Shown here piece after piece: positions 8,257-31,880 of a stretch of 40,000 bases of DNA. The notes beneath the pieces are model-generated. The model saw only the letters and a program-made list of their open reading frames with translations, did not search any database and had not been told where the DNA came from. The stretch lies in the NCBI GenBank assembly GCA_052378035.1, contig JBQSXI010000001.1; one strand, 5' to 3'. Source of the stretch: Pseudoalteromonas sp. AOP31-A2-14 (GTDB lineage Bacteria; Pseudomonadota; Gammaproteobacteria; Enterobacterales; Alteromonadaceae). Every line of letters starts with the position of its first letter. The first letter of the stretch is position 1. The position numbers and the translations under genes were made by a program.

Positions 8257-8320
8257 TTGGTATAAATTTATTAATATGAATATGCAGTTTGAAATGTTGC
8301 GATATAAATACGCCTCTATA

Positions 8321-9025
8321 TCAAACCCAAAGAGCTGATAGCGGTGTGTCAGGCCGATAATGGTGACATAACTGTGCTTGCAATAACTCTGCGGTTGCCA
8401 ACGCGTCTGTTAACGCATTATGGCTATTATATGCTGGTAATGAATAGCGCGCACGTGTATCACCTAAGCGTAACGAATCGAGCTTAGTATTAAATATCTT
8501 CCCTAATAAGCCTTGTCGTGCTTGTAAAGCGCGCTTTTCAATTTCCATCGTGTCTATAACGGCAAACTCAATACCCTCTCCTAGTCTTGCTAATAAGGCT
8601 TTATTTAAAAAATGCCGCTCAATTGCACCAAAATGTACTACTATAATTTTACCGGTTAACGCTGCTAATAACTGATTTAAAATAACACTTAAATCGGGTG
8701 CATCATTAACCTCTGAATGAGTTATACCATGTATAACAATCGACTTTTCTTTTAAGTCTTGTCGTGGCTGTACTAACCAATGCGCACTTTCTCGGCAATA
8801 AATACGTGCAAGCGTAAACGGCACTAACCCAACGCTTACAATATCATCACTTTTGAAGTTTAGACCGGTCGTCTCAAAATCTAACGCCACCATAGGGACT
8901 TCATTAATAGCTAAGTTGCCATCACTTATGCTGTGCTTATAAAAGCTTTGTAACTGTTGATCACAAGCGCTTGCAAATAATTGCTTATAGCGACTATGCC
9001 AGTTTACTTTTTGCTTATTTACCAT
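8321..9025 (-). CDS. DnaQ/DEDD-family 3'-5' exonuclease (Pol III epsilon-like, stand-alone)
   Basis: Exo I VALDFETTGL, Exo II VVHFGAIE and Exo III HNALTDALATAELL motifs. Confidence 0.8.
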   Translation of the reverse strand: MVNKQKVNWHSRYKQLFASACDQQLQSFYKHSISDGNLAINEVPMVALDFETTGLNFKSDDIVSVGLVPFTLARIYCRESAHWLVQPRQDLKEKSIVIHGITHSEVNDAPDLSVILNQLLAALTGKIIVVHFGAIERHFLNKALLARLGEGIEFAVIDTMEIEKRALQARQGLLGKIFNTKLDSLRLGDTRARYSLPAYNSHNALTDALATAELLQAQLCHHYRPDTPLSALWV

Positions 9026-12639: not shown

Positions 12640-13441
12640 GGTGGTGTGTCAGAAAGTATGCTGAAGAAATAAAGGAGGGTGACAGCCAAAGCAAGATGAT
12701 ATATTTGAGGTTATGAAGACACAAATAGATATCAGCTGCCCCGACTGTCACAGTCCCAGTTTAAAGAAAAACGGCATAAAAAGCTATGGCAAGCAGAACT
12801 ACCAATGCAAGGACTGCAAACGTCAATTCATTGGTGACCATGCCTTAACTTATAAGGGCTGTCACTCTAAAATAGAAGACATCATACGGCTAATGACGGT
12901 GAGAGGTTGCGGTGTTAGAGACATAGCTATTATAGCCTCAGTCAGTATCGGTAAAGTATTGGGCACCATAGGCTCATCTGTTTATAAGATCGCGCCTAAG
13001 AAGCGCTACTATGAACGCTTAGAGGTTGATGAGTTCTGGACTTACGTGTATCGCAAGAAGCGTAAAGTCTGGCTCATCTACGCTTATGACCGTGCTACTA
13101 ATGAGATTGTCGCTTATGTCTGGGGCAAACGTGACTTAAAAACAGCTAAGAAGCTAAGAGCACGTTTAAAGCAACTTAAAGTAAGCTATGGCTCTATCAG
13201 TATGGACAACTGGGATAGCTTTAAAACCGCCTTTAAAGGTGATCACAAACAGGTTGGCAAACAGCATACCATAGGTATAGAGGGTAATAACTGTCGCCTT
13301 AGACACCGATTAAGACGAGCGGTTAGAAAGACTTGTTGCTTCTCAAAAAAGCTTGATAATCATTTTAAAGTGTTTGATTTGGTGTTCTTTTACATCAATT
13401 ATGGCTACGTCTGATGCCAGCATACTTTTTAGAACACCACC
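12640..13441 (+). mobile_element. IS1-family insertion sequence (802 bp)
   Basis: Terminal inverted repeats are GGTGGTGTGTCAGAAAGTATGCTG (left) and CAGCATACTTTTTAGAACACCACC (right). It is flanked by the 8-bp direct repeat TAATTTTG (12632-12639 and 13442-13449). Confidence 0.85.
12713..13414 (+). CDS. IS1-family transposase, single fused ORF (Zn-finger, HTH and DDE)
   Basis: CPDCHSPSLKKNGIKSYGKQNYQCKDCKRQF is an InsA-like zinc finger. EVDEFWTYV...WLIYAYDRATNEIVAYVWGKR...TIGIEGNNCRLRHRLRRAVRKTCCFSK is InsB-like. Unlike E. coli IS1, no frameshift is needed. Confidence 0.85.
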   Translation: MKTQIDISCPDCHSPSLKKNGIKSYGKQNYQCKDCKRQFIGDHALTYKGCHSKIEDIIRLMTVRGCGVRDIAIIASVSIGKVLGTIGSSVYKIAPKKRYYERLEVDEFWTYVYRKKRKVWLIYAYDRATNEIVAYVWGKRDLKTAKKLRARLKQLKVSYGSISMDNWDSFKTAFKGDHKQVGKQHTIGIEGNNCRLRHRLRRAVRKTCCFSKKLDNHFKVFDLVFFYINYGYV

Positions 13442-13993
13442 TAATTTTGAAGTCAGTGCAGGTACTAATGATAAGGCAACAAAGCTTGAAATAATGACAG
13501 CGCCAGCAAGTACACCACCAAACTCTCTAAACAAACGCCCTACTGTTGATGGTAAAAAGGCAATCGGTACAAATACTGCAGCCAAAACAGCAGTAGTAGC
13601 TATTACAGCAAAAAACACTTCACGAGTGCCAATTACAGCGGCTGCCCTTCGGCCAAGCCCCAAACCACGCTGCCTTTGAATGTTTTCACTGACAACAATG
13701 GCATCGTCCACAATTAGGCCTGTAGCAAGAACTAGGGCGAGTAATGTTAAAATATTAATTGAAAAACCAAGTACCCATATTAACGCCAGCGATCCCACCA
13801 ATGCAACAGGAATTGCAAAAGCAGGAACAAGCGTTGCCCGCCAAGAACCGATAAATACCCATAGGGTAATGATCACCAAAAGTACTGTTAAAACTAACGA
13901 AGTGATCACTTCTTTAACTGAGCTTCGAATAAATAACGCATCGTCAGATGTAAGAGTAAACTGTAATTCAGGAAAACGTGTGCGCATTCCATC

Positions 13994-15076
13994 CTAAATT
14001 CGGATAATAAGTGCAATTTCTCAGATTAGATGGCCAGCTGTTATAATTCGGCCATTTTCTCGCCAAAGGAAATTGCTTTAATGAAATATAAACAGCTGAC
14101 ACAAGAAGAAAGATACCAGATTTACGCGTTAATAAAAGCAGGAAATAACCAAAAGCAGATAGCTGAAGAACTAACTCGTTCACCGTCATCTATTTCTAGA
14201 GAGCTAAAACGCAATAAAGGACTTAAAGGCTATCGGCCTAACCAAGCCAATAACTTTGCTGAACAAAGACGTAAGTCATCTTTCAAAGCAAGTAAGTTAA
14301 CAGAGGACGTCACTCACTGGATTAATAAATTGTTGCATGACGGACTTTCCCCTGAGCAAGTGGCAGGCCGCTTAGCTTTAGAGAAACAGGTCGTTTTACA
14401 TCATGAAACAATTTATCAATATATTTACAGAGACAAGGCTCGTGGTGGCAAGCTACATAAGACACTCACTCGTGCATGTAAAAAGTATAAAAAACGCTAT
14501 GGAAGCTATGATAAACGTGGACAGATAGTTAATCGAGTCAGCATTGATGAACGCCCAAGTATTGTGGATTCAAAGTCTAGGATTGGTGATTGGGAGGGCG
14601 ATACAGTGATAGGTAAAGGGCGTAAAAATGCGCTTGTCACAATGGTTGAACGTAAAACGTTATATACAGTCGTTCACAGAATTGAAAGCAAGCATGCGAA
14701 AATAACAGCCGATGCGCTGATCACGTGTATGACACCATATAAAGGTAAGGTTATTACCGTGACGTTAGATAATGGAAAAGAGTTTGCTCACCATGAGCAT
14801 GTTGCACAAAAATTAGAAGCTGATGTGTATTTCGCTCATCCCTATTCATCATGGGAGCGGGGCATAAATGAGAATACCAACGGCTTACTTAGACGCTTCT
14901 TCCCCAAGGGAACTGACTTTATGGCGCTAAGTGAAGCAGAGATACAGGCGGCAGTTGATAAGCTCAACCATCGGCCAAGAAAAACAAGAGGGTATAAAAC
15001 CCCTCATGAATTATTTACGGGGCAATCAGAAGTTCTGGTGGCTGCATAATGATTGCACTTAATACTTGAATTCAAG
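13994..15076 (+). mobile_element. IS30-family insertion sequence (1083 bp)
   Basis: Imperfect terminal inverted repeats share AATTC..TAAGTGCAAT (left CTAAATTCGGATAATAAGTGCAAT, right complement CTTGAATTCAAGTATTAAGTGCAAT). An apparent 4-bp direct repeat CATC flanks it (13990-13993 and 15077-15080). Boundaries are good to +/- 2 bp. Confidence 0.75.
14081..15049 (+). CDS. IS30-family transposase
   Basis: MKYKQLTQEERYQIYALIKAGNNQKQIAEELTRSPSSISRELKRN is the IS30 HTH. The DDE region includes IGDWEGDTVIG, LDNGKEF and SWERGINENTNGLLRRF. The listed ORF starts at 14030; the ATG at 14081 matches family N-termini better. Confidence 0.85.
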   Translation: MKYKQLTQEERYQIYALIKAGNNQKQIAEELTRSPSSISRELKRNKGLKGYRPNQANNFAEQRRKSSFKASKLTEDVTHWINKLLHDGLSPEQVAGRLALEKQVVLHHETIYQYIYRDKARGGKLHKTLTRACKKYKKRYGSYDKRGQIVNRVSIDERPSIVDSKSRIGDWEGDTVIGKGRKNALVTMVERKTLYTVVHRIESKHAKITADALITCMTPYKGKVITVTLDNGKEFAHHEHVAQKLEADVYFAHPYSSWERGINENTNGLLRRFFPKGTDFMALSEAEIQAAVDKLNHRPRKTRGYKTPHELFTGQSEVLVAA

Positions 15077-16001
15077 CATCTAATAAATTTAATACTTCAT
15101 CTGAAATCTCAATTGTATTAGATTGCGCTTGACGGATAATTTCCAACCCGATAACTGGAACACCATTTAAGCGAACCATTGAAAGCGGATCTGCAGGGCC
15201 AAAGTAAACAGCGGCAACATCACCAATACGAGTATCACCCTGTATTATAATATCAGCTATTTGTTCAGCATTAATTGAAGTTGCATCAGCACGTACAATA
15301 ATTTGCTGATCATTGGCTTTTAAGCTACCCGCAGGTACATCAAAGGGAGCTTCGAGAAGCACATCTGCTACGTCAGGCACGGTAAGGTTAAAACTGCTCA
15401 GTTTTAAAGGATCAATACGAACCCGCAAAACACGCTCTCTATCACCATTTAAGCGCACATCAGCCACGCCAGGAATGGTTAAAAATTGAGGCGCTAAATC
15501 TGTTTCAACACGTTCGGTTAGTGCCTCTAGAGATACTGTGTCACTTGAAACAGTTAAAGAGACAACAGCTTCAGCATCATCATCAGCCTTAATAATTGAA
15601 ACCTGCTCTACGTCGTCAGGTAGTTCACGCTCTATTCTAGCAACTGATTCTCGGGTTTCGTTAGCTGCATTATCGAGATTAACCCCCGGGCGAAACTCAA
15701 CCACAATACGTGAGTTACCTTCCTCACTTTGTGCGCGAATAGACTTAACGCCGCTTACACGAGCGACCGCGCCCTCTAATTTACTAGTAACTTCGGTATC
15801 TACTGTTTCGGGAGATCCTCCAGGAAATGCCGCACTAACCGTTATCTTAGGCATATCAACATCAGGAAGTTCACGCACCTCAACACCTGCAATTGCAGCA
15901 ATACCAGCAATTATGATCAACAAATTTAAAACCACAATCAGCACTGGACGGCGAATAGCCATTGAGGGCAAATCGTTCATTAGTGGGAGTTGTTTCATAA
16001 C

Positions 16002-20634: not shown

Positions 20635-20724
20635 TAAGCTTCAATGGCAACTATGAGCTGTGAGTTCAGACGGGCGATAAACTCGCTTTCGGTGTTTGTC
20701 AAACTAGTTGTCGCGATCACTACG

Positions 20725-21774
20725 TTATGCACTCTCAGCCTTGACACTATTTTGTTCAGGGTTTAAGTACACTTCTTTTGGTAAATCCCAATTACGGATA
20801 TTACCGCTCCAGCGCTCAGGGTGAGCATCTTTAGCACCTTGATAAACTTCTTTTCTATTAGCCAATATGTCACCCGCTAATCCTGAATGCCTTTGATGTG
20901 GGCTGACGTATTTGATGCCACTATGTTTGTGGTTAAAATTATACCAGTGGCTAAATTTCAACACCCAACTACGCGCCTCATCAATTGTTGAAAACCCTTT
21001 ATACGGATAGTCAGGCCGATATTTACACGTTTTAAATATCGACTCAGCATAAGCATTATCATTGCTCACCCTAGGACGATTAAAAGACGACACGACACCT
21101 AAACTATAAAGTGTTTCAAGCATTGATGAGCCTTTCATTGGGCTTCCATTATCCGAATGCAGTACCAGAGGATTATCTTTAACTCCTTCTTTTAAATGAG
21201 CTTTCTTAATTAATATTGATGCATTTTCTGCTGATTCGTCATCATGAATTTCCCATCCAACAATCTTTCGACTAAATATATCGAGTATCAAATATAAATA
21301 AAAATGCAGCCCTTTAGCGGGGCCTGGTAACCAAGTAATATCCCAACACCACACTTGGTTTGGCCCTGTAGCACAGTGTGTCGTCGGTACTTTTCTCTCT
21401 TTTATCTGACTACGTCCGCGAGCGTTTTGCTGTTTTTCTTCATGAAGAACACGATAATATGTTGATTCAGAAGCAAGATAAATACCCTCATCTGCTAATG
21501 TAGGGACGATTTGGCTTGGTGGTAAGCTCTTAAAATCATCGCTATTAACGATGGCTAATATGTTATCTCTCTCTGCTTTTGATAGCTTATTTTTTGGCTC
21601 AGGGCGCTGAGATATTGGTCTACCATCTGTTTTTATGTTCCCGTCAACAGTCCAACGTTGATACGTCCGGACACTGATCCCAAGTTCACGGCAAGCTTTA
21701 AACTTTGGCGCACCAGAACTCACAGCTTCATTAACTAGTTTAACTGCTTGAATGCGAGCTGAGTCGAGGATCAT
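20725..21774 (-). CDS. IS3-family transposase OrfB (DDE integrase core)
   Basis: WCWDITWLP..., HSDNGSPMKG and SNDNAYAESIFKTCKY are rve-type DDE motifs. Confidence 0.85.
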   Translation of the reverse strand: MILDSARIQAVKLVNEAVSSGAPKFKACRELGISVRTYQRWTVDGNIKTDGRPISQRPEPKNKLSKAERDNILAIVNSDDFKSLPPSQIVPTLADEGIYLASESTYYRVLHEEKQQNARGRSQIKERKVPTTHCATGPNQVWCWDITWLPGPAKGLHFYLYLILDIFSRKIVGWEIHDDESAENASILIKKAHLKEGVKDNPLVLHSDNGSPMKGSSMLETLYSLGVVSSFNRPRVSNDNAYAESIFKTCKYRPDYPYKGFSTIDEARSWVLKFSHWYNFNHKHSGIKYVSPHQRHSGLAGDILANRKEVYQGAKDAHPERWSGNIRNWDLPKEVYLNPEQNSVKAESA

Positions 21775-22268
21775 TCGTCCTCGGCTTCCCCCCAGATCGC
21801 ATTTGCTTTTTTTCTTAACACCAATAGTGCTGCGGTTTCAGCGAGTGCCTTATCTTTTCGACGTAGCTCCTTTTCTAATTGATTGATCTGTTTTTTATCT
21901 TTCTTTGTTTCGGTGGAGAAGGCTTTTTCTTGCTCTTTAACGTTAGCGTTTGCATCTATACACGCATTTCGCCAAGCCGATACTTGTTCCACATAAAGAC
22001 CTTTGCCTCGGCAATATTCCGCTAACTCAGCTTGATTTAAAGAGGCTGTTTCCAACACGACTGAGAATTTATTTGCTGATGACCACTGCTCAGCATTCTT
22101 TCCATCACCTGGCACTAAATGCCCCTTATCAATTGCTTGTTTTCGCCAATTATACAAGGTTGATTCACCAATCCCCATCTCGATTGATAATTGGGCTATT
22201 GCTATATTATTTGGAGGCATCATCTTCTGAAGAGCCGACTCTTTGCTTTGCGCTGAATAATGTTTCAT
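21771..22268 (-). CDS. IS3-family transposase OrfA (HTH / leucine zipper)
   Basis: 165 aa; the HTH is IAQLSIEMGIGESTLYNWRK, with a coiled-coil C-terminus. Its stop overlaps the orfB ATG (ATGA), and orfB is in the -1 frame. Confidence 0.85.
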   Translation of the reverse strand: MKHYSAQSKESALQKMMPPNNIAIAQLSIEMGIGESTLYNWRKQAIDKGHLVPGDGKNAEQWSSANKFSVVLETASLNQAELAEYCRGKGLYVEQVSAWRNACIDANANVKEQEKAFSTETKKDKKQINQLEKELRRKDKALAETAALLVLRKKANAIWGEAEDE

Positions 22269-22315
22269 TGTTACTCCACGCCCTCTGTTTAATGGTTGAA
22301 TATTAAGCGCGACAA

Positions 22316-22780
22316 CTAGTCTGACAGAGAGGGATATTTCCGAATCACTGCTATTTTTCCATCTTCGATTTCCAAAACTTCCATCGTTGAGTAGTGTAAT
22401 TCAATGAGTTTATTTGTTTGAGGGTGAATTCCCTTACTAGATGTGGTGTATGTAATGGTAATCACATTGTGAGCGGGAATAACTTGGTTCAAAGTAGCTT
22501 CATGTTCAGAATGAGATCCTAAATAAAACAACATCCCTTCGCGAATACTTTCTTTGCCGTCAGGTAACCGGGAGTCATCCGAATCGTAGGGCAAGTGTTG
22601 GTGGGCGACATCAGGTTTAAGGAAAGACAGGTAGTGCTCTAAGTCTTTTTCAGTAGCATCAGGTGCCTGTGTTGCTGCCCATGCTAAAAAATACTTTTTT
22701 CCGAATACGGATAAATCTGTGTCTGCTATCGCGTTAAATGACGAGACTAAGGTAAAAAAAGTAAGCATCCATCTATTCAT
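22316..22780 (-). CDS. Cassette 8: secreted NTF2/SnoaL-like protein; its 3' end runs into the IS3 inverted repeat
   Basis: GGAGG RBS before the ATG at 22780 and signal peptide MNRWMLTFFTLVSSFNAIA. The last 4 codons and the stop (S-L-S-D-stop) are encoded in full or in part by the IS3 terminus, so the native C-terminus and this cassette's attC are missing. Confidence 0.6.
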   Translation of the reverse strand: MNRWMLTFFTLVSSFNAIADTDLSVFGKKYFLAWAATQAPDATEKDLEHYLSFLKPDVAHQHLPYDSDDSRLPDGKESIREGMLFYLGSHSEHEATLNQVIPAHNVITITYTTSSKGIHPQTNKLIELHYSTMEVLEIEDGKIAVIRKYPSLSD

Positions 22781-22804
22781 AAAAACCTCCACTGTTTAGA
22801 TTAG

Positions 22805-22889
22805 GTATAACGCCAGCAATAAACGGCGCCCTGACAAGGGCGTCCGGTGGAGGCCGAAGGCCGGAACGAATTTAATTGCCTTGTTAAAT
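22805..22889 (-). other. attC site (85 nt) of cassette 7
   Basis: Plus strand reads GTATAAC-GCC...(GC-rich imperfect palindrome GGCGCCCTGACAAGGGCGTCC / GGCCGAAGGCC)...CCTT-GTTAAAT. Confidence 0.75.
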
Positions 22890-22891
22890 CG

Positions 22892-23203
22892 TCACTTCCC
22901 ACGGCAATGGTTCTCGTAGAAATCTAACAGAAAATCGTCAGTTTCTTGGTTAGCTGCGGACCAATCATAACCAAACCAATTGTCCCAACCAGATTCGATA
23001 ATCAACTTACCCCGATGAAAACGTGGATGGACGGCCTCATCTGTTACCGGAGGGACATACGGCCCCCAGCGGTAAAAGCCATAGCGCAGCATGAGTAACA
23101 GACTGACTTTCCATGAACGCCAAAATGAGAAGGTCGAAATGGTTACCCTCCCACTGGCGTTATCTCTGACTTCGAATCCCTTACTCATAGTCTGTCGTGA
23201 CAT
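22892..23203 (-). CDS. Cassette 7: hypothetical protein (103 aa)
   Basis: ORF fills the cassette. Its first ATG lies inside the R' core (GTTAAATG), and no SD is visible. No recognised domain. Confidence 0.45.
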   Translation of the reverse strand: MSRQTMSKGFEVRDNASGRVTISTFSFWRSWKVSLLLMLRYGFYRWGPYVPPVTDEAVHPRFHRGKLIIESGWDNWFGYDWSAANQETDDFLLDFYENHCRGK

Positions 23204-23268
23204 TTAACGCCGAAGCTCAGTTGCCGCTGTAGAGCGAAGCGGAACAGCGGTCAATTGCAGCGACTTGT
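23202..23268 (-). other. attC of cassette 6, R' side (67 nt); the remaining 5 nt (TAGCT) are at 25238-25242, after intron copy 1
   Basis: Plus strand reads ATTTAAC-GCCGAAGCTCAGTTGCCGCTG...CAGCGGTCAATTGCAGCGACTTGT | intron | TAGCT. Joining the exons restores ACTT-GTTAGCT, which matches the GTTRRRY ends of the other sites. Confidence 0.75.
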
Positions 23269-25237
23269 GTACGCCCGACATGGGCATTGACTTATGAGGT
23301 GAAAGTCCTCTGTAGGAAGATCACCGTTTAAATAACACACTGTTATTAAACGATAACTACTAGCGAATGGCAAGGGCTAAATCGCGAGAGATAGTCTAGA
23401 GGAAGCCGCTAGCAAATCTGTGAGCTGATGAACAAAAACATCATATGAGGCGTAGGCTGGAGACGAGCTAGCACAAGATAGCGAAGTCATGTGATCTAAC
23501 GGCCACCGTAAATGATGCAGTTGTGCAGAGAAAGTCGATGCACCTTATTCGGGGAGATCTGATAAACACGCATCCGCGCTAACGCTTGGAGATTACCAGT
23601 TAGGGACTGGTTGTTCAACCCTTGGCGCTTTGGTTGCTGCGACCTACAGCGAGCGAAATAGCAGTAAACAAGCATTAGTTTCGACGCGCTTTATCGAGTA
23701 ATCGCTAGAGTGATTTATCAGAAGTCAGCAGACGGCATAGTAGCCAAACGCCCATCGTAATGGAGGGGACACGGTGAAGGCCTGAACATCTTAACCAGAG
23801 GAGATACTACAAATGAACTTGAATTCACATAGATCACCGTGTTGTGATAGTGATGAACAGCGTTCGACTGTGAATAATACCTCGAATGAATACAACAAAA
23901 CAGATCGTGACCTGATGGCAAGGGTACTGAGCAACCACAACATTGGTGCAGCATGGCAACATGTTAAGCGCAATAAAGGGGCTGCGGGTATTGATAATAT
24001 GAGTATTGAGGAATTTAATGACTTCGCTAAGTTACATTGGCTGGGTATTAAACAACAATTACTTAGCGGCACTTATCAACCCTTGCCAGTCAAACGCGTG
24101 ATGATACCCAAACCCGATGGCGGTGAGCGAATGCTTGGGATCCCTTCTGTTATTGACAGAGTAATCCAACAAGCTATTGCTCAAGTGATTAGCCCTTACT
24201 TTGAGCCTCTATTTTCACCACATAGTTATGGTTATCGCCCTCATAAAAGAGCCAGCCAAGCAGTAAATCATGTTCAATCTTGTGTTAAACAAGGTTATAA
24301 AACAGCAGTTGATATTGACTTGTCTAAGTTCTTTGATGAAGTAAACCATGACATGCTGATGAATCGTGTTGGTCGTAAAGTCAAAGACAAAGCACTCATG
24401 CGCCTACTTGGTAAATACCTCCGAGCGGGGATCGCAGAGCGCGAAACGGGTCTGTGGTTTGAGTCAACCAAAGGAGTCCCTCAAGGTGGGCCATTATCCC
24501 CTTTGCTTTCCAACATCTTACTCGATGAATTAGATAAGAAGCTAACCTACAAACACCTTAAGTTTGCACGTTACGCTGATGATATAATCATTTTAGTAAA
24601 AACGAAAAGCGAAGGACTCATAATCCAGCGGGAAATTACTGCGTTCATCACTCAGCGATTAAAACTCAAAGTGAATGAATCGAAAAGTCGAGTCGGTCCC
24701 GTATCAGGCTCGAAATTTCTCGGGTTTACCTTCCGTTACGCTCAAGTGCAGATCCACGAACAGGCGCTAAAGAAATTCAAAGCAAATGTAAGAGAACTCA
24801 CTAACCGCAACTGGGGGATCTCAATGACCCTACAAATTCATAAACTCACACAGTATTTGCGCGGCTGGGGGAACTACTACCTAATAGCCAACGCTTATCA
24901 GCTAACGGTGGATTTAGATCACTGGATCCGACGTAGGATAAGAATGTGCTACTGGCGGCAATGGCGTAAACCTCGCACCAAAGTACGCAGTTTAATGAAA
25001 TTGGGTGTTAGCGAACGACTCGCCATAGCCTGTGGTATCACCAGTAAAGGCCCTTGTAGAAGCTCAAAAACAAAAGGAATTAACATTGCGCTAGGTAATG
25101 ACTATTTAGCATCACAAGGTTTAGTGTCATTGAAAGATATTTGGATCAAAATTCATTACGGGAGATGAACCGCCCATTGCGGACCCGCATGATGGGTGGT
25201 GTGGGGGCTGGAGGTTAGAGACCTCCGGCTACCCGAT
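23269..25237 (+). mobile_element. Group II intron, bacterial class C (IIC-attC type), copy 1, 1969 nt
   Basis: 5' end is GTACGCCCGAC (GUGYG-like). Domain V is at 25170-25199 (CCGCCCAU UGCG-GACC-CGCA UG AUGGGUGG, with a CGC triad and a 2-nt 3' bulge). Domain VI is at 25203-25234 with bulged A25231 six nt from the 3' end (...CCCGAU). The RT/maturase ORF sits in domain IV. The intron lies in the attC bottom strand, antisense to the cassettes. Confidence 0.88.
23813..25168 (+). CDS. Group II intron-encoded protein: reverse transcriptase plus maturase (X) domain, no endonuclease domain
   Basis: RT motifs are RVMIPKPDGGERMLGIPSVIDRVIQQA, GVPQGGPLSPLLSNILL and FARYADDIIILV (YADD). The maturase motif is LTQYLRGWGNYY. 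It ends shortly after domain X, as in class C intron-encoded proteins. Confidence 0.92.
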   Translation: MNLNSHRSPCCDSDEQRSTVNNTSNEYNKTDRDLMARVLSNHNIGAAWQHVKRNKGAAGIDNMSIEEFNDFAKLHWLGIKQQLLSGTYQPLPVKRVMIPKPDGGERMLGIPSVIDRVIQQAIAQVISPYFEPLFSPHSYGYRPHKRASQAVNHVQSCVKQGYKTAVDIDLSKFFDEVNHDMLMNRVGRKVKDKALMRLLGKYLRAGIAERETGLWFESTKGVPQGGPLSPLLSNILLDELDKKLTYKHLKFARYADDIIILVKTKSEGLIIQREITAFITQRLKLKVNESKSRVGPVSGSKFLGFTFRYAQVQIHEQALKKFKANVRELTNRNWGISMTLQIHKLTQYLRGWGNYYLIANAYQLTVDLDHWIRRRIRMCYWRQWRKPRTKVRSLMKLGVSERLAIACGITSKGPCRSSKTKGINIALGNDYLASQGLVSLKDIWIKIHYGR

Positions 25238-25563
25238 TAGCTTTGTTTGCCAAGGTATTCTTTAGCGTACAGGCCAACTAAACTACGCCCAGGATTTTGA
25301 CCGTTAATCCATTCATCAACGGAGAATAGCTCAAACAATCCAACTTTAATCAAGGTCGGTACTGCGATCTTCAGCTGCTCTTCTACCTCGCCACGCTCAC
25401 CTGCGTTGTATAAAGCGACGTTGCGGAGCATCGTGGCAACCGTACCTGTTTGTACCTTACTTCCATCTTTAAGGGTGACTGCGGGAAGCTCTTCTCCTTC
25501 GGCCACGATCTTTTTATTGATCGAACCAAGTTGCTCGATATTTTCTGGTGAACCTTCGGACAT
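25237..25563 (-). CDS. Cassette 6: hypothetical acidic protein (108 aa), flanked on both sides by intron copies
   Basis: AAGGAG RBS before the ATG at 25563. The stop codon TAA (25237-25239) spans the intron/exon junction and is preserved in the intron-less configuration. No recognised domain. Confidence 0.55.
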   Translation of the reverse strand: MSEGSPENIEQLGSINKKIVAEGEELPAVTLKDGSKVQTGTVATMLRNVALYNAGERGEVEEQLKIAVPTLIKVGLFELFSVDEWINGQNPGRSLVGLYAKEYLGKQS

Positions 25564-25591
25564 CTCGATCTCCTTCAATAATTTTCGTAAT

Positions 25592-25719
25592 AGCTAACGC
25601 CCAGCTCAGCCGCAGTTTGTAAGTTGACGTTTTGTGGAAACCTTTTGCGTAGCAAAACCACAAAACGGCGACTTACAAACTGTCGAGCGCACGAAGTGCG
25701 CGTTGCTGGAGCGACTTGT
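25592..25719 (-). other. attC of cassette 5, R' side (128 nt); the remaining 5 nt (TAGCT) are at 27689-27693, after intron copy 2
   Basis: Plus strand reads AGCTAAC-GCCCAGCTCAGCCGCAGTTTGTAAG...long palindrome (GTTTTGTGGAAACC / CCACAAAAC; CTTACAAACTG)...GGAGCGACTTGT | intron | TAGCT. Confidence 0.72.
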
Positions 25720-27688
25720 GTACGCCCGACATGGGCATTGACTTATGAGGTGAAAGTCCTCTGTAGGAAGATCACCGTTTAAATAACACACTGTTATTAA
25801 ACGATAACTACTAGCGAATGGCAAGGGCTAAATCGCGAGAGATAGTCTAGAGGAAGCCGCTAGCAAATCTGTGAGCTGATGAACAAAAACATCATATGAG
25901 GCGTAGGCTGGAGACGAGCTAGCACAAGATAGCGAAGTCATGTGATCTAACGGCCACCGTAAATGATGCAGTTGTGCAGAGAAAGTCGATGCACCTTATT
26001 CGGGGAGATCTGATAAACACGCATCCGCGCTAACGCTTGGAGATTACCAGTTAGGGACTGGTTGTTCAACCCTTGGCGCTTTGGTTGCTGCGACCTACAG
26101 CGAGCGAAATAGCAGTAAACAAGCATTAGTTTCGACGCGCTTTATCGAGTAATCGCTAGAGTGATTTATCAGAAGTCAGCAGACGGCATAGTAGCCAAAC
26201 GCCCATCGTAATGGAGGGGACACGGTGAAGGCCTGAACATCTTAACCAGAGGAGATACTACAAATGAACTTGAATTCACATAGATCACCGTGTTGTGATA
26301 GTGATGAACAGCGTTCGACTGTGAATAATACCTCGAATGAATACAACAAAACAGATCGTGACCTGATGGCAAGGGTACTGAGCAACCACAACATTGGTGC
26401 AGCATGGCAACATGTTAAGCGCAATAAAGGGGCTGCGGGTATTGATAATATGAGTATTGAGGAATTTAATGACTTCGCTAAGTTACATTGGCTGGGTATT
26501 AAACAACAATTACTTAGCGGCACTTATCAACCCTTGCCAGTCAAACGCGTGATGATACCCAAACCCGATGGCGGTGAGCGAATGCTTGGGATCCCTTCTG
26601 TTATTGACAGAGTAATCCAACAAGCTATTGCTCAAGTGATTAGCCCTTACTTTGAGCCTCTATTTTCACCACATAGTTATGGTTATCGCCCTCATAAAAG
26701 AGCCAGCCAAGCAGTAAATCATGTTCAATCTTGTGTTAAACAAGGTTATAAAACAGCAGTTGATATTGACTTGTCTAAGTTCTTTGATGAAGTAAACCAT
26801 GACATGCTGATGAATCGTGTTGGTCGTAAAGTCAAAGACAAAGCACTCATGCGCCTACTTGGTAAATACCTCCGAGCGGGGATCGCAGAGCGCGAAACGG
26901 GTCTGTGGTTTGAGTCAACCAAAGGAGTCCCTCAAGGTGGGCCATTATCCCCTTTGCTTTCCAACATCTTACTCGATGAATTAGATAAGAAGCTAACCTA
27001 CAAACACCTTAAGTTTGCACGTTACGCTGATGATATAATCATTTTAGTAAAAACGAAAAGCGAAGGACTCATAATCCAGCGGGAAATTACTGCGTTCATC
27101 ACTCAGCGATTAAAACTCAAAGTGAATGAATCGAAAAGTCGAGTCGGTCCCGTATCAGGCTCGAAATTTCTCGGGTTTACCTTCCGTTACGCTCAAGTGC
27201 AGATCCACGAACAGGCGCTAAAGAAATTCAAAGCAAATGTAAGAGAACTCACTAACCGCAACTGGGGGATCTCAATGACCCTACAAATTCATAAACTCAC
27301 ACAGTATTTGCGCGGCTGGGGGAACTACTACCTAATAGCCAACGCTTATCAGCTAACGGTGGATTTAGATCACTGGATCCGACGTAGGATAAGAATGTGC
27401 TACTGGCGGCAATGGCGTAAACCTCGCACCAAAGTACGCAGTTTAATGAAATTGGGTGTTAGCGAACGACTCGCCATAGCCTGTGGTATCACCAGTAAAG
27501 GCCCTTGTAGAAGCTCAAAAACAAAAGGAATTAACATTGCGCTAGGTAATGACTATTTAGCATCACAAGGTTTAGTGTCATTGAAAGATATTTGGATCAA
27601 AATTCATTACGGGAGATGAACCGCCCATTGCGGACCCGCATGATGGGTGGTGTGGGGGCTGGAGGTTAGAGACCTCCGGCTACCCGAT
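25720..27688 (+). mobile_element. Group II intron, class C (IIC-attC type), copy 2, identical to copy 1
   Basis: Offset is exactly 2451 nt from copy 1. Every stretch I compared by eye is identical, and the 451-aa intron-encoded proteins and all internal six-frame ORFs are identical. It has the same TTGT|T insertion point. Confidence 0.88.
26264..27619 (+). CDS. Group II intron-encoded RT/maturase (copy 2)
   Basis: Translation is 100% identical to 23813-25168. Confidence 0.92.
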   Translation: MNLNSHRSPCCDSDEQRSTVNNTSNEYNKTDRDLMARVLSNHNIGAAWQHVKRNKGAAGIDNMSIEEFNDFAKLHWLGIKQQLLSGTYQPLPVKRVMIPKPDGGERMLGIPSVIDRVIQQAIAQVISPYFEPLFSPHSYGYRPHKRASQAVNHVQSCVKQGYKTAVDIDLSKFFDEVNHDMLMNRVGRKVKDKALMRLLGKYLRAGIAERETGLWFESTKGVPQGGPLSPLLSNILLDELDKKLTYKHLKFARYADDIIILVKTKSEGLIIQREITAFITQRLKLKVNESKSRVGPVSGSKFLGFTFRYAQVQIHEQALKKFKANVRELTNRNWGISMTLQIHKLTQYLRGWGNYYLIANAYQLTVDLDHWIRRRIRMCYWRQWRKPRTKVRSLMKLGVSERLAIACGITSKGPCRSSKTKGINIALGNDYLASQGLVSLKDIWIKIHYGR

Positions 27689-27692
27689 TAGC

Positions 27693-28109
27693 TTATGATT
27701 TTGCGGCACCAATAGTTTTACAAAAGCTTTCAATAACAGCTTTTTCAGGTGATGAAACGCCACCAGAAATAGAATAACTAATTGATATTTTTGAATTTGA
27801 ACCGGATTCTTCTACGACCACATTAAGGGGTGCAGTTTTACCGTTACCGTATGAAACGTCTTGGCCTGCGGAAATAATACCAAGATCTTTGTCAGAACTT
27901 GAAATTTTCCAGCCGCCTTTTGCTATTTGTTGGTATATTTTTTTGTAGGCTTCTGCGGTTGAAACCCCTTCAACTTCAGCCCATGTTTTAAAGGTTTTTC
28001 CTTTAAAAAAGCTGCCTTCTTTTGTGAAGTTAGTTTCGCATTGCTCCGCTGCCAAAGTATTAAAACTAACGCAGAAAGAAAGTAACAGAATTGCTTTAGA
28101 TTTTTTCAT
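27693..28109 (-). CDS. Cassette 5: secreted protein of unknown function (138 aa)
   Basis: GAGGGA RBS and signal peptide MKKSKAILLLSFCVSFNTLAAEQ. The mature part is Gly/Ser-rich and likely beta-rich. Confidence 0.6.
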   Translation of the reverse strand: MKKSKAILLLSFCVSFNTLAAEQCETNFTKEGSFFKGKTFKTWAEVEGVSTAEAYKKIYQQIAKGGWKISSSDKDLGIISAGQDVSYGNGKTAPLNVVVEESGSNSKISISYSISGGVSSPEKAVIESFCKTIGAAKS

Positions 28110-28163
28110 AATTCCCTCAATTGGTTATACCCTAAAAATTGTTGATAGCTTCGGGCATGGAAA

Positions 28164-28235
28164 AGCTAACGCCTGAATTCAGCCGCCGGCCGCTGGCGCA
28201 GCCAGTGGACGGTCGGCTGGAATGAATTGTTAGCC
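28164..28235 (-). other. attC site (72 nt) of cassette 4
   Basis: AGCTAAC-GCCTGAATTCAGCCGCCGGCCGCTGGCGCAGCCAGTGGACGGTCGGCTGGAATGAATT-GTTAGCC. The arms CAGCCG.../...CGGCTG pair with extrahelical bases. Confidence 0.8.
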
Positions 28236-28236
28236 A

Positions 28237-28653
28237 TCAACTCGAATTCTTCTTTAGAGCAGACGCTATTAGTTGGCTACAACCGAACCAACCCCAATAG
28301 ATTCTATGGTTCATGATTTTGTAGTCAGAAATCTGCATGACTTCGAGAATGTCGATTTGATCGCCTTCAGGAGTTTCCCTCGGGTACTCCCAAATAAGGG
28401 TGTCACCGTTGATGAAGTATTTGCCTGTTCGATGCCAACGAACTAGATCATTGGGTCTTCGCTTAGTACCCTCCTCCAAGAAGCGAACAATCTCCTGCCG
28501 CCCCCGAAGAACGCCAGAGTCTTGATCTAGGATGGCTGGCACAAGCGGGCTTTCGAAGACAGCATCTTCAGCGTACAGATTGATGAGGGATGGAACATCC
28601 CGACCCTTGGCATATTCGTGCCATTTCTCATAGATGGTTTCAAACTCGTTCAT
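28237..28653 (-). CDS. Cassette 4: NTF2/SnoaL-like protein (138 aa)
   Basis: GGGAGAG RBS before the ATG at 28653; the longer listed ORF start lies inside the attC. LINLYAEDAVFESP...IMNHRIYWGW is typical of SnoaL-like folds. Confidence 0.6.
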   Translation of the reverse strand: MNEFETIYEKWHEYAKGRDVPSLINLYAEDAVFESPLVPAILDQDSGVLRGRQEIVRFLEEGTKRRPNDLVRWHRTGKYFINGDTLIWEYPRETPEGDQIDILEVMQISDYKIMNHRIYWGWFGCSQLIASALKKNSS

Positions 28654-28667
28654 ATCTCTCCCATGAA

Positions 28668-28716
28668 GGCTAACGCCCGCCATCATGCGCTTGTCGCATG
28701 CATGGCATTGTTATGT
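28668..28716 (-). other. attC site (49 nt, unusually short) of cassette 3
   Basis: GGCTAAC-GCCCGCCATCATGCG-CTTGT-CGCATGCATGGCATT-GTTATGT. The arms GCCATCATGCG / CGCATGCATGGC pair with one extrahelical C. Confidence 0.7.
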
Positions 28717-28718
28717 GT

Positions 28719-29048
28719 TTATTTTTCAGATTTTTTGATTTCATATTGGTCTGCGCCATGATTCCCCAGATTCGGGGCACTATTTCTTGGCTTAAATATT
28801 GGAGCCGTCGGATGCTTCGGGTAGTAAAGGTTGATAGTAAACCGTTCGGCATACTCACAAGAACGAAGATCAACCAATGTTCCGGCCTCAACAGTGACTC
28901 CTTGAGCCTCCACATCTTCTGCCAGCTCAGCAACGAAGGGCTTAGAACACAATAGGTCCATGCCTGGAGAATTTGCCCACCAACCTACTGCCGCACCTAC
29001 AATTAGGCTCAGGGCAACGGTCAAAGCAACCAGAAACACTCTCTTCAA
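28719..29048 (-). CDS. Cassette 3: small exported or membrane-anchored protein (109 aa, TTG start)
   Basis: GGGGGGTGA RBS 4 nt before the TTG. N-terminal hydrophobic anchor MKRVFLVALTVALSLIVGAAVGWW. No recognised domain. Confidence 0.5.
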   Translation of the reverse strand: MKRVFLVALTVALSLIVGAAVGWWANSPGMDLLCSKPFVAELAEDVEAQGVTVEAGTLVDLRSCEYAERFTINLYYPKHPTAPIFKPRNSAPNLGNHGADQYEIKKSEK

Positions 29049-29066
29049 TCTTCACCCCCCTGCAAC

Positions 29067-29127
29067 ACATAACGCTAAGCTAAGCCGAGCGCGCTTTTTG
29101 CGCGTCGGCTTGAGCTTTTTGTTAGAG
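29067..29127 (-). other. attC site (61 nt) of cassette 2
   Basis: ACATAAC-GCTAAGCTAAGCCGAGCGCGC-TTTTT-GCGCGTCGGCTTGAGCTTTTT-GTTAGAG, with the palindrome AAGCCGAGCGCGC / GCGCGTCGGCTT. Confidence 0.8.
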
Positions 29128-29132
29128 CCATT

Positions 29133-29831
29133 TTAACTTGCAATCTCAGGAAGAAAAGAAATGTCAACATGGTATTTTTTGGGGTTGTCTCTTTCTATTA
29201 GAACAGTAATTTCATCAGTATTAATGTGCTCAGTGGGATCGAACCATATATTTTCACTACTAAATAAGTGTATTTCAGATGTGGTAGGGTTTTTCCATTG
29301 AGCACAAATTTTATATGGGTTTCTACCATTTACTTCAAGTGAGCCATTGATTTCCACGTTTTGAAATTTGGCCTTAATTGGAATCCCATTTTTTTTCAAA
29401 TATTCAATCTTTTTACCCTTCAAGCTTCCTAGCAGTATGATTAAGAATCCAGTGAGGAAAAAAACCGAACCTAGCCCCCCCAAAATAGTTGGCGCACCCC
29501 ACAAAGAAAAGAAACCATTTATTTTAGCTCGCTCAGGAAAAGTCTCTTGATACAAAATTTCAACAATTTCGCCTCTAGAATAACTTGGAGGGTTACTTCC
29601 AGACGACGAGGTGAATTCAATAGTTGAACCATCTTGTGTTATAAATTCAATCATCGGTCTATATGTATCTGAGTCACTTGATCTTGAGCGTACAAGTTCT
29701 ACGACTGTCCCGTCAGCTGTTAGCGCATTCTTCAGAAAATCCTGTGTATTTGTAAATAAGAAAAATGCCCCGACTAGCATGCCAAGCCCGACCACTGTAA
29801 ACGTATATTTTATTATTGAAATTGTTCTCAT
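29133..29831 (-). CDS. Cassette 2: membrane protein with tandem DUF3592-like domains (232 aa)
   Basis: TM helix, then GTVVELVRSRSSDSDTYRPMIEFITQDGSTIEF...SYSRGEIVEILY, then a second TM helix, then a second similar barrel (KAKFQNVEING...ITVLIERDNPKKYHVD). AAGGAAA RBS. Confidence 0.6.
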   Translation of the reverse strand: MRTISIIKYTFTVVGLGMLVGAFFLFTNTQDFLKNALTADGTVVELVRSRSSDSDTYRPMIEFITQDGSTIEFTSSSGSNPPSYSRGEIVEILYQETFPERAKINGFFSLWGAPTILGGLGSVFFLTGFLIILLGSLKGKKIEYLKKNGIPIKAKFQNVEINGSLEVNGRNPYKICAQWKNPTTSEIHLFSSENIWFDPTEHINTDEITVLIERDNPKKYHVDISFLPEIAS

Positions 29832-29845
29832 ATTTTTCCTTGTAG

Positions 29846-29946
29846 CTCTAACGCCGTTGTAACCGGCAAAAAATTGTTGGCTAAAATTTTGTGAAGTACG
29901 AGCAAAGCCAACAAATTTTTTGTCCGCGTTGACGACTTTGTTATGT
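29846..29946 (-). other. attC site (101 nt) of cassette 1
   Basis: CTCTAAC-GCCGTTGTAACCGGCAAAAAATTGTTGGCT...AGCCAACAAATTTTTTGTCCGCGTTGACGACTTT-GTTATGT. The stop codon of cassette 1 lies inside the GTTA of R''. Confidence 0.78.
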
Positions 29947-30450
29947 GAATTCTCGATTGAAACGCCGAACTTTTGTACGCATATTTTTCATAGGTGACGA
30001 TGTATTAAACTGAATCATACGCCCCAAAGTCCATTGTTCATACCACGCAACACCATACAAATCATGGTCACTTAAGCTTGAAATGAGTAAAAGTATCTCG
30101 TTAACCGTAGACTCAAGCTCAATGAGTAAATCGTCATATTTCCACTGACGATACTCTTCGTGGAAGCTTTCAGCAAGCGAGCCTAATTGATTCCATTTAT
30201 AACCTGTTTCTGGGAAATCAACTTGTTGGTTTTGAGCTCTTAAGTTATACCATTTAAGAACGAGTCTCCCCCAACCAATCAAGTAAGCCACTGTGTCACT
30301 AACGCTAATGACTGTACCTTTGATATTTCCCTCTACTCCAAGTTTGCGAGCTTTGCTTTCCGGAATTGAACGATAGTCAGCCATGAGTTTCGGAAATATT
30401 GAGTTTATCGCTAACTCCAATTCATCCTTGTTTTTTGGCACAGAAGACAT
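29941..30450 (-). CDS. Cassette 1 (next to attI): ClbS/DfsB-family (DUF1706) four-helix-bundle protein
   Basis: GGAGA RBS before the ATG at 30450 (MSSVPKNKDELELAI...). VSDTVAYLIGWGRLVLKWYN and the C-terminal SSPMKNMRTKVRRF pattern match my recollection of the ClbS/DfsB family. Confidence 0.65.
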   Translation of the reverse strand: MSSVPKNKDELELAINSIFPKLMADYRSIPESKARKLGVEGNIKGTVISVSDTVAYLIGWGRLVLKWYNLRAQNQQVDFPETGYKWNQLGSLAESFHEEYRQWKYDDLLIELESTVNEILLLISSLSDHDLYGVAWYEQWTLGRMIQFNTSSPMKNMRTKVRRFNREFT

Positions 30451-30462
30451 TTTGATCTCCAT

Positions 30463-30628
30463 TCACATAACAATTTTATAGTGCGCTCATTGCGCATATA
30501 TCTGCCAATGTCACGCTCATGTATTCAATAATTCTTTTTAACAAATAACTTAACACATTGCTACATATAATTTTTTATTAGTACTCAAACTCTCAATAAA
30601 AGACAAAATGCGCTCGCCGCTCATTTTC
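30463..30628 (-). other. attI region, with the attI x cassette-1 junction at 30465-30471; the cassette promoter Pc should lie here or in the intI 5' end (not resolved)
   Basis: The minus strand reads GTTATGT at 30471-30465, immediately upstream of cassette 1. This is the same core as the R' ends of two attC sites. The AT-rich 220-bp spacer runs to the divergent intI. Confidence 0.55.
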
Positions 30629-30656
30629 TTGAATATGTGTGCATCACAACTATACT
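30629..30656 (+). promoter_or_regulatory. Candidate sigma70 promoter of intI (PintI)
   Basis: TTGAAT (30629-30634), a 16-nt spacer, then TATACT (30651-30656), about 35 nt upstream of the intI ATG. Confidence 0.5.
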
Positions 30657-30670
30657 GTATATAAAAACAG
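30655..30670. promoter_or_regulatory. LexA (SOS) box overlapping the intI -10 region
   Basis: CTGTATATAAAAACAG is a perfect CTGT-N8-ACAG palindrome with an AT-rich centre. The E. coli consensus is TACTGTATATATATACAGTA. Confidence 0.8.
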
Positions 30671-30689
30671 CACTATTATTGGTAATAGT

Positions 30690-31661
30690 ATGAAAACACG
30701 TTCCCCATTTTTAAATTACATAGCTGAATATATGCTAGTTCGTCAATATTCATTGCGCACCGTAGATACGTACCTAAGATGGATTGCATCTTATATCCAT
30801 TTTCATAATAAACGTCATCCCGCCTCAATGGGGGACAATGAAGTCGAACGCTACTTAGAACATTTAGTGTTAAAGCAAAACGTTGCACCACGTACGCAAG
30901 CTACCGCACTCAATTCATTGTCATTTTTATACAAGCACATAATAAAAAAAGAACTCTCATTAAATTTAAATTTTGCTCGTAGTAAAAAACAAGCAAAGCT
31001 CCCTGTAGTGATGACCCCAGAGGAAGTTAAAATGTTGATGGCTCATTTAAATAAGCGCTATTATTTAATTGCAGCCCTTATGTATGGAAGTGGCTTAAGA
31101 GTAATGGAAGCGGTGCAATTAAGGGTGAAAGATATTGATTTTGATTACAAGTGTATTCAAGTATGGAATGGCAAAGGTAATAAACACCGTATTGTAACGC
31201 TGGCCACCGAGCTAATTCCTATGCTGAGAAATCAAATTCTGCAGGTTGATGACTATCTAAAACTTGATTTAAATAATACGGAATATGCTGGCGTATGGAT
31301 GCCTTATGCTTTAACAAAAAAATATCCTTCTGCCTCAAAATCACTTGCGTGGCAGTATTTATTTCCCTCACATATATTAAGTACAGATCCTCAAAGTGGT
31401 GAAATAAGACGACATCATTTTCATCACTCGTGTATAAGAAAAGAAGTAAAAAAAGCCGTTCAAAAATCGGGATTAACAAAAATAATAACACCGCATACCT
31501 TGCGTCATTCATTTGCAACGCATCTATTGCAAAGTGGCGCCGATATTCGCACCGTTCAAGCACAATTGGGCCATTCTGATGTCAAAACCACACAAATATA
31601 TACGCATGTTTTACAACAAGGAGCAAACGGTGTTGTAAGCCCATTAAGCAAAATTTTCTAG
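30690..31661 (+). CDS. intI: Integron integrase IntI (tyrosine recombinase)
   Basis: N-terminal FLNYIAEYMLVRQYSLRTVDTYLRWI and box I GSGLRVMEAVQLRVKDID. The IntI-specific extra segment is WMPYALTKKYPSASKSLAWQYLFPS. Box II is HTLRHSFATHLLQSGADIRTVQAQLGHSDVKTTQIYTHV, containing the catalytic Tyr. I prefer the start at MKTRSPF (323 aa) over the upstream GTG. Confidence 0.92.
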   Translation: MKTRSPFLNYIAEYMLVRQYSLRTVDTYLRWIASYIHFHNKRHPASMGDNEVERYLEHLVLKQNVAPRTQATALNSLSFLYKHIIKKELSLNLNFARSKKQAKLPVVMTPEEVKMLMAHLNKRYYLIAALMYGSGLRVMEAVQLRVKDIDFDYKCIQVWNGKGNKHRIVTLATELIPMLRNQILQVDDYLKLDLNNTEYAGVWMPYALTKKYPSASKSLAWQYLFPSHILSTDPQSGEIRRHHFHHSCIRKEVKKAVQKSGLTKIITPHTLRHSFATHLLQSGADIRTVQAQLGHSDVKTTQIYTHVLQQGANGVVSPLSKIF

Positions 31662-31880
31662 TTAACTTACTATGAGGCGAAAAGTGCGTTAGCGGAACGG
31701 CCGCTTTGTAGAATAAAGAAAATAGCATTAAACGACTTGAACCATCTCTTGCTCGCTCAAAGTCGCCATTAAAGTATTTACTTTAACTGATTTTAGAACA
31801 TAAACGAGTTAGTACAACCGGCCGCTTATGGCACATTGCGGGCTATTTATCGCCAAGTTAGTAAGTTTGTATACCTAAAA

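Follow-up and report, generated by a model that had tools for sequence, protein, structure and literature searches.

The integron integrase IntI uses attC sites as folded bottom strands and recombines them at G|TT, either with attI or with one another, and in published integrons a LexA box at the intI promoter places the enzyme under SOS control. The described systems closest to the locus analyzed here are the chromosomal integrons of Vibrio and Alteromonadales (VchIntIA/IntI4 and those of Pseudoalteromonas, Shewanella and Rheinheimera), in which the cassettes diverge from intI and attI, the folded attC sites show an R box followed by an unpaired spacer, together with extrahelical bases, and most of the cassettes are of unknown function. 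Our locus occupies the interval 22316-31661 of a 40-kb stretch of DNA (hereafter the window, that is, the whole stretch that was analyzed) and shares all these traits, along with the LexA box, the integron-specific domain of the integrase and the residues at its catalytic positions. Unlike the near-uniform repeats of the Vibrio cholerae repeat (VCR) type, its attC sites form a small and heterogeneous array, and it differs from the sampled relatives in its position next to pyrF and in the truncation of its far end by an insertion sequence (IS). The second group of close relatives consists of group IIC-attC introns, namely S.ma.I2 of Serratia marcescens, E.c.I7 and the introns known from the arr-2 attC of pKPX-1-type Klebsiella plasmids; the two introns in the window resemble these in encoding a protein with reverse transcriptase (RT) and X domains and without an endonuclease domain, in the CGC triad of domain 5 (D5), in the antisense insertion at TTGT|T within R'' and in the motifs of predicted outward promoters (Pout), but lie in a marine chromosomal integron rather than in a clinical class 1 integron.

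On sequence evidence, we read the locus, with high confidence, as a functional integron in the chromosome of a marine Pseudoalteromonas-like bacterium. IntI, probably repressed by LexA and induced in the SOS response, would insert, excise and reshuffle promoterless cassettes that would be expressed from the cassette promoter Pc in the attI region. The array comprises seven complete cassettes and a truncated one, together of mixed origin, on which two later layers of mobile DNA have been superimposed: an S.ma.I2-type intron that retrohomed into R'' (TTGT|T, bottom strand) of attC5 and attC6, and an IS3-family element that removed the end of cassette 8 together with whatever lay beyond. An earlier note on this DNA had described a complete integron between pyrF and a helicase-cvfB operon. 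The flanking genes are identified accordingly, and with intI, attI and the attC sites all present the element is complete in the usual sense, although its array is truncated at the far end and two attCs are disrupted; the two introns, the IS truncation and the conserved LexA box are additions to that description.

Integrase, attI and attC sites

The open reading frame (ORF) 30639-31661 scores 461.8 bits against the TIGR02249 "integron integrase" profile (cutoff 265), and its product aligns without gaps to VchIntIA (PDB 2a3v, residues 3-320; E 1e-116, 54.7% identity), with R, K, H, R, H and Y at positions 135, 160, 267, 270, 293 and 302, which we take to be the catalytic positions of VchIntIA. 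The segment ALTKKYPSASKSLAWQYLFPS aligns with the matching segment of VchIntIA, and three of the Xer matches (to XerA, XerC-like and XerH proteins) cover only one side or the other of residues ~183-247, the gap in which this integron-specific insert falls. The gene contains neither a frameshift nor an internal stop. The earlier note had proposed an intact IntI with the integron-specific insertion and had named the absence of that domain from an alignment as an observation that would overturn the proposal; the alignment retains the domain. The real start is probably ATG 30690, because the 323-aa form is recorded, identically, in other assemblies, whereas the 340-aa form that starts with GTG returned no record by exact look-up. 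The nearest IntI proteins are those of Pseudoalteromonas (94-96% identity), from which we infer that the host is a marine Pseudoalteromonas-like gammaproteobacterium.

The motif CTGTN8ACAG occurs only once in the window, next to the -10 hexamer of the candidate intI promoter, Pint. In 58 of the 77 related loci, the same motif falls in the 160 nt that precede intI, compared to a background of 0.06 per kb, and among the loci listed it is mostly found ~27-44 nt upstream of the gene. IntI is probably under LexA repression and SOS-induced. On the other side of this promoter region, the attI crossover G|TT maps to 30471|30470 (GTTATGT, minus strand, 30471-30465). The intI-attI DNA is 88-92% identical in six Pseudoalteromonas, with homology ending at 30465-30472 and, at the 3' end of intI, at 31645-31660, and an assembly that encodes the identical 323-aa IntI (L083) carries different cassettes from the exact crossover onward. 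Judging by these boundaries, and by the recurrence of cassette 1 from this very point in the contig L103, attI adjoins intI and the cassettes are joined to it at G|TT.

The seven repeats of the array end in RYYYAAC...GTTRRRY (minus-strand reading), and the bottom strands of all seven fold with a 5-bp R box (TAACG/TGTTA), an unpaired spacer of 2-5 nt and a short L stem. The folding suggested in the earlier note brings out extrahelical bases in each of them: the 3' ('') arm carries, in the order attC1 to attC7, an extrahelical G, G, C, G, G, C and A, and the additional single-base bulges lie mostly on the same arm. The lengths given in that note (49, 61, 72, 72, 85, 101 and 133 nt) are exact, those of attC5 and attC6 once the introns are removed; these two sites are not contiguous because a 1969-nt group II intron interrupts either of them. 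That the interiors are little alike is equally borne out, the mean pairwise identity being 48% (range 33-62%).

A scan combining regular expressions with minimum free energy (MFE) recovered four of the seven sites and several false positives elsewhere in the window, and covariance models were therefore used instead. The first of these (R1), built from the seven sites of the window, identified 143 sites (E<=0.01) in 80 related intI loci, all on the plus strand and, where spot-checked, all upstream of intI. The second (R2) was built from 105 sites of 43 other integron loci, with the window left out. In the R2 alignment, the R box is nearly invariant and compensatory changes affect nine of the ten L-stem pairs; the paired cells amount to 94%, versus 38-47% when the partners are slid. 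When the window was searched with R2 with the filters off, the proposed seven sites were the top seven matches, all on the plus strand, with scores from 55.2 down to 20.0 bits. The sequence and structure data together identify these repeats as genuine attC sites. With the covariance models, no further attC was found between the IS and cvfB or downstream of intI, and Rfam, at gathering and E-value thresholds, yielded no attC family. The next R2 match (10922-10960, minus strand, 39 nt; 17.5 bits, E ~0.009) lies between a cNMP-binding/CBS gene and an RND pump gene; it is probably an unrelated hairpin, because it is too short and is located outside the array.

Table 1. Positions of the integron features, introns and insertion sequence in the window (R2, bit score with the covariance model of that name; Pout positions refer to the complement).
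Feature	Position	Strand	Length	Details
intI, integron integrase	30690-31661	+	323 aa	ATG 30690; longest ORF from GTG 30639
Candidate intI promoter (Pint)	30629-30656	+		TTGAAT-16-TATACT, consensus match
LexA-box-like site	30655-30670			CTGTATATAAAAACAG; next to -10 of candidate Pint
attI + Pc region	30465-30620	-		homology to relatives stops at crossover
Candidate Pc	30596-30567	-		TTGAGA-18-AATTAT, 9/12 consensus
Cassette 1	29852-30470	-		ORF 29941-30462, DUF1706 (Pfam E 1e-55), 173 aa; attC1
Cassette 2	29073-29851	-		ORF 29133-29831, DUF3592 membrane protein (Pfam); attC2
Cassette 3	28674-29072	-		ORF 28719-29048, 109 aa, no family; attC3
Cassette 4	28170-28673	-		ORF 28237-28653, SnoaL-like (Pfam SnoaL_2), 138 aa; attC4
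Cassette 5	25598-28169	-		ORF 27693-28109, 138 aa, no family; attC5, split by intron copy 2
Cassette 6	23208-25597	-		ORF 25237-25563, DUF7709 (Pfam E 3e-42), 108 aa; attC6, split by intron copy 1
Cassette 7	22811-23207	-		ORF 22892-23203, 103 aa, no family, no clear ribosome-binding site; attC7
Cassette 8, truncated	22327-22810	-		ORF 22316-22780, SnoaL-like (weak SnoaL_2), 154 aa; no attC
attC1	29846-29946		101 nt	R2 55.2 bits
attC2	29067-29127		61 nt	R2 42.9 bits; bottom-strand fold with extrahelical G
attC3	28668-28716		49 nt	R2 35.9 bits
attC4	28164-28235		72 nt	R2 39.4 bits
attC5	27689-27693 + 25592-25719		133 nt without intron	R2 22.5 bits despite interruption; fold -45 kcal/mol
attC6	25238-25242 + 23202-23268		72 nt without intron	split by intron copy 1
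attC7	22805-22889		85 nt	R2 33.0 bits
Intron copy 1	23269-25237	+	1969 nt	RT/maturase 23813-25168; D5+D6 25169-25237; predicted Pout 23345-23373, 23590-23618
Intron copy 2	25720-27688	+	1969 nt	RT/maturase 26264-27619; predicted Pout 25796-25824, 26041-26069
IS3-family element	20697-22326	-	1630 bp	orfA 21771-22268, orfB 20725-21774, overlapping

Cassettes, introns and the insertion sequence at the array end

The interval encompasses the integrase gene on the plus strand, eight ORFs on the minus strand and two 451-aa RT ORFs on the plus strand. The eight minus-strand cassette ORFs, divergent from intI, that had been listed in the earlier note are all present and co-oriented. The ribosome-binding site that had been assigned to each cassette holds for seven, which have a clear Shine-Dalgarno sequence, and not for cassette 7. 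The stop codons that had been placed inside several attCs are found within the TAAC of R'' only in cassettes 1 and 6, whereas that of cassette 5 merely abuts its site. The eight products include DUF1706, DUF3592 and DUF7709 proteins, two SnoaL-like proteins and three proteins without a family, and the statement that six of them have no assignable function, or a fold-level one at best, stands after Pfam, NCBIfam and PADLOC searches. The cassette 3 product has no match in any of these three collections, PADLOC detected no defence family in any of the eight cassettes, and exact look-up of the cassette 5 product returned no record.

Several of the cassettes recur elsewhere with clean boundaries. 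The contig L103 contains cassette 1 in an unrelated context, at 100% identity over 628 nt and with identity ending at G|TT where the junction was read. L100 contains cassette 4 at 99.1% identity over 530 nt. Intron-less copies of cassette 6 are 99.7-100% identical in L096-L099 and L101 (100% in L097), and at the junctions that were read identity ends at G|TT on both sides. L100, in which cassette 4 is followed directly by cassette 6, encodes a protein identical to the cassette 6 product; both L097 and L100 are integrons with an IntI 42.8% identical to that of the window. An acetyltransferase cassette of 531 nt separates cassettes 7 and 8 in L104 and L105, and its insertion point coincides with the G|TT of attC7. 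Given that contigs 98-100% identical to the window differ by G|TT-bounded cassettes and by an intron, the activity of the system appears to be very recent, and these variants, like the identical cassettes in unrelated arrays, indirectly suggest cassette excision and integration catalyzed by IntI.

The attC sites tell a similar story. attC5 is 87-90% identical to attCs of Rheinheimera and Cellvibrio arrays that carry other genes, and attC1, alone among the seven, belongs to the ~100-nt Alteromonadales type; arrays of Pseudoalteromonas, Psychrosphaera and Thalassotalea are dominated by an attC type of ~99-104 nt. The mean attC identity is 56-68% in the Pseudoalteromonas-type relatives and 74% in the Thalassotalea and Vibrio arrays, compared to 49-56% in Zobellella, Chromatiaceae and a Rheinheimera metagenome-assembled genome, that is, close to the value for the window. 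Judging by these comparisons, the heterogeneity of the attCs is real and reflects mixed origin, and it is unexceptional for small chromosomal arrays. The assembly of the array from diverse sources, put forward in the earlier note, is directly supported by the matches of cassettes and attCs in distant arrays, but the heterogeneity that had prompted it is not unusual for an array of this size.

Two of the loci with matching cassettes have peculiar settings. In L103 (Logan ERR12057298), the neighbors of cassette 1 (2987-3614; junction ...AAATTG|TTATGTG) are an SBF transporter gene and TniA/TniB-like genes, and intI is absent from the surrounding 3 kb; the arrangement may represent a cluster of cassettes carried by a Tn7- or Tn402-like element. 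In L096, L098, L099 and L101 (3.9-Mb chromosomes, e.g., CP098523.1; ~3170-5460), a 185-nt region ~70% identical to the attI/promoter region of the window is followed by cassettes, one of them the identical cassette 6, and by the remnant of a group II maturase, and a lactate permease gene occupies the place expected for intI. By its gene order, this locus looks like an integron that lost its integrase.

The two introns are located within a perfect repeat (23259-25243 = 25710-27694) and take up 3.9 kb, about half, of the 9.3-kb interval. Rfam models of group II D1-D4 match both copies (RF02001, 130 bits; RF01998, 65 bits), and no Rfam family matches the 3' region of the intron, D5 and D6 included. 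The intron protein scores 393 bits against TIGR04416, and the only Pfam domains detected are RVT_1 and GIIM, with no endonuclease domain. Folding of the 3' end reveals a D5 with a CGC triad, which marks class C introns, and a D6 with a bulged A; because of these three traits we assign the introns to class C. Both copies run antisense to the cassettes and interrupt R'' of the attC bottom strand at TTGT|T; the arrangement TTGT|intron|T is also found in the related copies of L081, L053 and L095, the last on a Klebsiella plasmid. This sequence is the consensus insertion site of IIC-attC introns (PMC7923331). In its ribozyme, maturase and insertion site features, the intron thus appears to be a group IIC-attC intron of the S.ma.I2 type.

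The boundaries of copy 1 are set by empty-site alleles (AAGCTA|ACAAGTC) in L097, L096 and L105, the last of which is otherwise 100% identical to the window and lacks this intron. An intron longer than 1969 nt, conceivable because the two copies have identical flanks of 13 nt and 6 nt, is excluded by these alleles; the shared flanks belong to the related L''/R'' arms of attC5 and attC6. The cassette-genesis intermediate of Léon and Roy, with the intron at a terminator, was dropped as well, both targets being genuine attCs. The attC of the identical cassette 6 in L100 contains, at this very position, a different IIC-attC intron (4327-6249; 74-83% identical), which implies that this attC was invaded independently.

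Copies that match the intron over its full length with 96.5% identity are found on at least 160 plasmids, most of them from Klebsiella; as a stand-in for a placement within the IIC-attC clade, we rely on this nucleotide match to the arr-2 attC intron of class 1 integrons. The Klebsiella pneumoniae plasmid NZ_OV049814.1 (L095) carries two copies head-to-tail in a single arr-2 attC (4455-8395; class 1 integron, order intI1-arr-2-intron-intron-aac(6')-Ib-rmtF), whereas here the copies lie in neighbouring cassettes of one array; in the second plasmid copy the RT gene is broken.

The complement of the intron contains two predicted Pout motifs, TTGCCA-17-TTTAAT (77-105) and TTGAAC-17-TAATCT (322-350), which agree in sequence and position with the S.ma.I2/E.c.I7 row of Table 3 in PMC3001079. 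P2out of S.ma.I2 is active and the intron impedes transcription from Pc (Léon et al. 2010; PMC3001079). By analogy, transcription from Pc should not pass the two introns, which should themselves drive cassette 6 and cassettes 7-8 from their Pout. Given that R'' is parted from the rest of the site, the split attC5 and attC6 should be lost as substrates of IntI. Homologous recombination between the two identical direct repeats of 1985 bp could remove cassette 6.

The far end of the array is formed by the IS3-family element, which resembles other members of that family in its overlapping orfA (HTH_Tnp_1) and orfB (rve), in its size and in its 26-nt inverted repeats that begin with TG (20697-20722 and 22301-22326). 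Unlike them, this copy lacks the 3-4-bp target duplication: the flanks read ...GTT| and |GAG..., which implies that a deletion or rearrangement took the original end of the array. The element cuts cassette 8, which is why there is no eighth attC; the last three codons of ORF 8, part of the preceding codon and the stop are supplied by the left inverted repeat of the IS. The contigs of near-identical strains break inside this element.

Genomic setting and alternative readings

On one side, the integron is flanked by pyrF-lapB-ihfB-rpsA-cmk-aroA-serC-gyrA, and on the other side by genes for a DEAD-box helicase and cvfB. By gene content, both flanks consist of core housekeeping genes and the setting is chromosomal; no tni, Tn7-like, plasmid or conjugation genes and no flanking inverted repeats were found in the 40-kb window, and the sole transposase reported for the locus is that of the IS3-family element against the far end of the array. 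The GC skew of the plus strand is negative nearly throughout, and the minus strand carries all cassettes along with most of the core genes, which would place the attC bottom strands on the leading-strand template, the orientation reported for sedentary integrons. Exact look-up of the 235-aa pyrF product returned no record. Farther from the array, an AcrB-type RND transporter gene is broken into three ORFs (11021-12751, 13343-13987 and 15072-15998) by an IS1-family (12640-13441) and an IS30-family (13994-15076) insertion, neither of which is present in the otherwise 100% identical L088-L090; these insertions point to a genome rich in insertion sequences.

Compared to a typical sedentary integron, the locus has the chromosomal location without transposon or plasmid functions, but neither the large, near-uniform, host-specific attC array (there are seven attCs of 49-133 nt with the mean identity given above) nor the same position throughout the genus. 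In none of the 80 related loci is pyrF adjacent to intI, and L001 (Pseudoalteromonas sp. FUC4), L002, L005 and L006, with intI-attI DNA 91-92% identical to that of the window, have a common alternative context; in FUC4, no attC was found within 10 kb upstream with filters off. These comparisons indicate that the position of the integron is not conserved genus-wide.

This variability bears on the best of the alternatives, namely that the integron is mobile or was recently relocated, as part of a genomic island or a transposable unit, rather than inherited vertically as a sedentary one. It is compatible with the absence of pyrF from the neighborhood of intI in the related loci and with the six Pseudoalteromonas intI-attI modules, which share nothing with the window beyond ~30465 and 31645-31660 and four of which share another downstream context. 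Near-identical contigs part from the window at 20668 (where a 98%-identical contig diverges) and at ~31780-31810, delimiting an 11-kb variable block composed of the IS, the array and intI; heterogeneous attCs are seen in mobile integrons too. Strain-specific intI genes are shared among Shewanella, Vibrio and Pseudoalteromonas, and the authors of that study treat them as chromosomal integrases (PMC9229058). With core genes on both flanks, none of the mobility genes or repeats listed above in the window, and no attC-like half-site found with the covariance models at the intI-distal junction, we nevertheless consider relocation of this kind unlikely. At the edges of the block, a 28-nt orphan segment (20669-20696) separates the conserved cvfB flank from the IS, and metagenome contigs with intI (L083, L084) and with pyrF (L086, L087) diverge around ACATAAACGAG|TTAGTAC.

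More doubtful still is the possibility that the integron is decaying, with an intact IntI next to a frozen relic of an array locked by the introns and the IS. The R'' boxes of attC5 and attC6 are indeed split by the 1969-nt insertions, cassette 8 is cut by an IS without a target duplication, the RND pump gene of the same genome has suffered IS1- and IS30-family insertions, and L096, L098, L099 and L101 keep an attI-like region and cassettes after the loss of intI. However, intI is free of frameshifts and stops and keeps the residues at the six presumed catalytic positions, the LexA box is conserved, five attCs are uninterrupted, and the 98-100% identical contigs vary by whole G|TT-bounded cassettes and by the presence of the intron. 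Finally, although the scan with regular expressions and folding also picked up a few unrelated palindromes in the window, there is next to no chance that the repeats are terminators or repetitive extragenic palindrome (REP)-like elements after small genes, accompanied by a Xer- or phage-type integrase, a reading already refuted by an IntI that exceeds the cutoff of the integron-specific profile and contains the additional domain, by covariance matches found only on the predicted strand and, where spot-checked, on the predicted side of intI, by bulged bases mostly on one arm and by cassettes that recur elsewhere bounded at G|TT.

Several considerations weigh against a functional chromosomal integron of a Pseudoalteromonas-like host, the reading that we prefer. 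Part of the system may be locked, given the truncation of the array and the disruption of two of its seven attCs. Pc and Pint match the consensus at nine of 12 positions each, and promoter-like sites are fewer in the region than in its shuffles. The R2 training sites were picked via the window-derived R1, which makes the cross-validation not fully independent. The host genus is deduced from IntI, while the intI-attI module occupies differing contexts across strains. Recombination, transcription and splicing are predicted here from sequence.

Place among known systems and significance

The already known biology of integrons and IIC-attC introns accounts for everything that we observe at this locus, and no new mechanism is involved. 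Within that framework, it is possible, though not likely, that the array is a live part of a shared marine pool of cassettes and introns that reaches into clinical class 1 integrons, that identical cassettes move between integrons with integrases only 43% identical, that the intron is still retrohoming here and that the intI-attI platform relocates between chromosomal sites. The locus is a natural example of IntI-mediated cassette exchange across distantly related integrons, of attC invasion by an intron nearly identical to that of clinical resistance integrons, and of array erosion by insertion sequences. Because near-identical contigs differ by one cassette and one intron, it also offers a convenient non-clinical system for the study of cassette dynamics and of the effects of the intron on attC function and on the expression of downstream cassettes. 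On the less likely reading of a shared marine pool, cassettes that were movable would become fixed and be expressed as separate genes once an intron splits R'' and brings an outward promoter.

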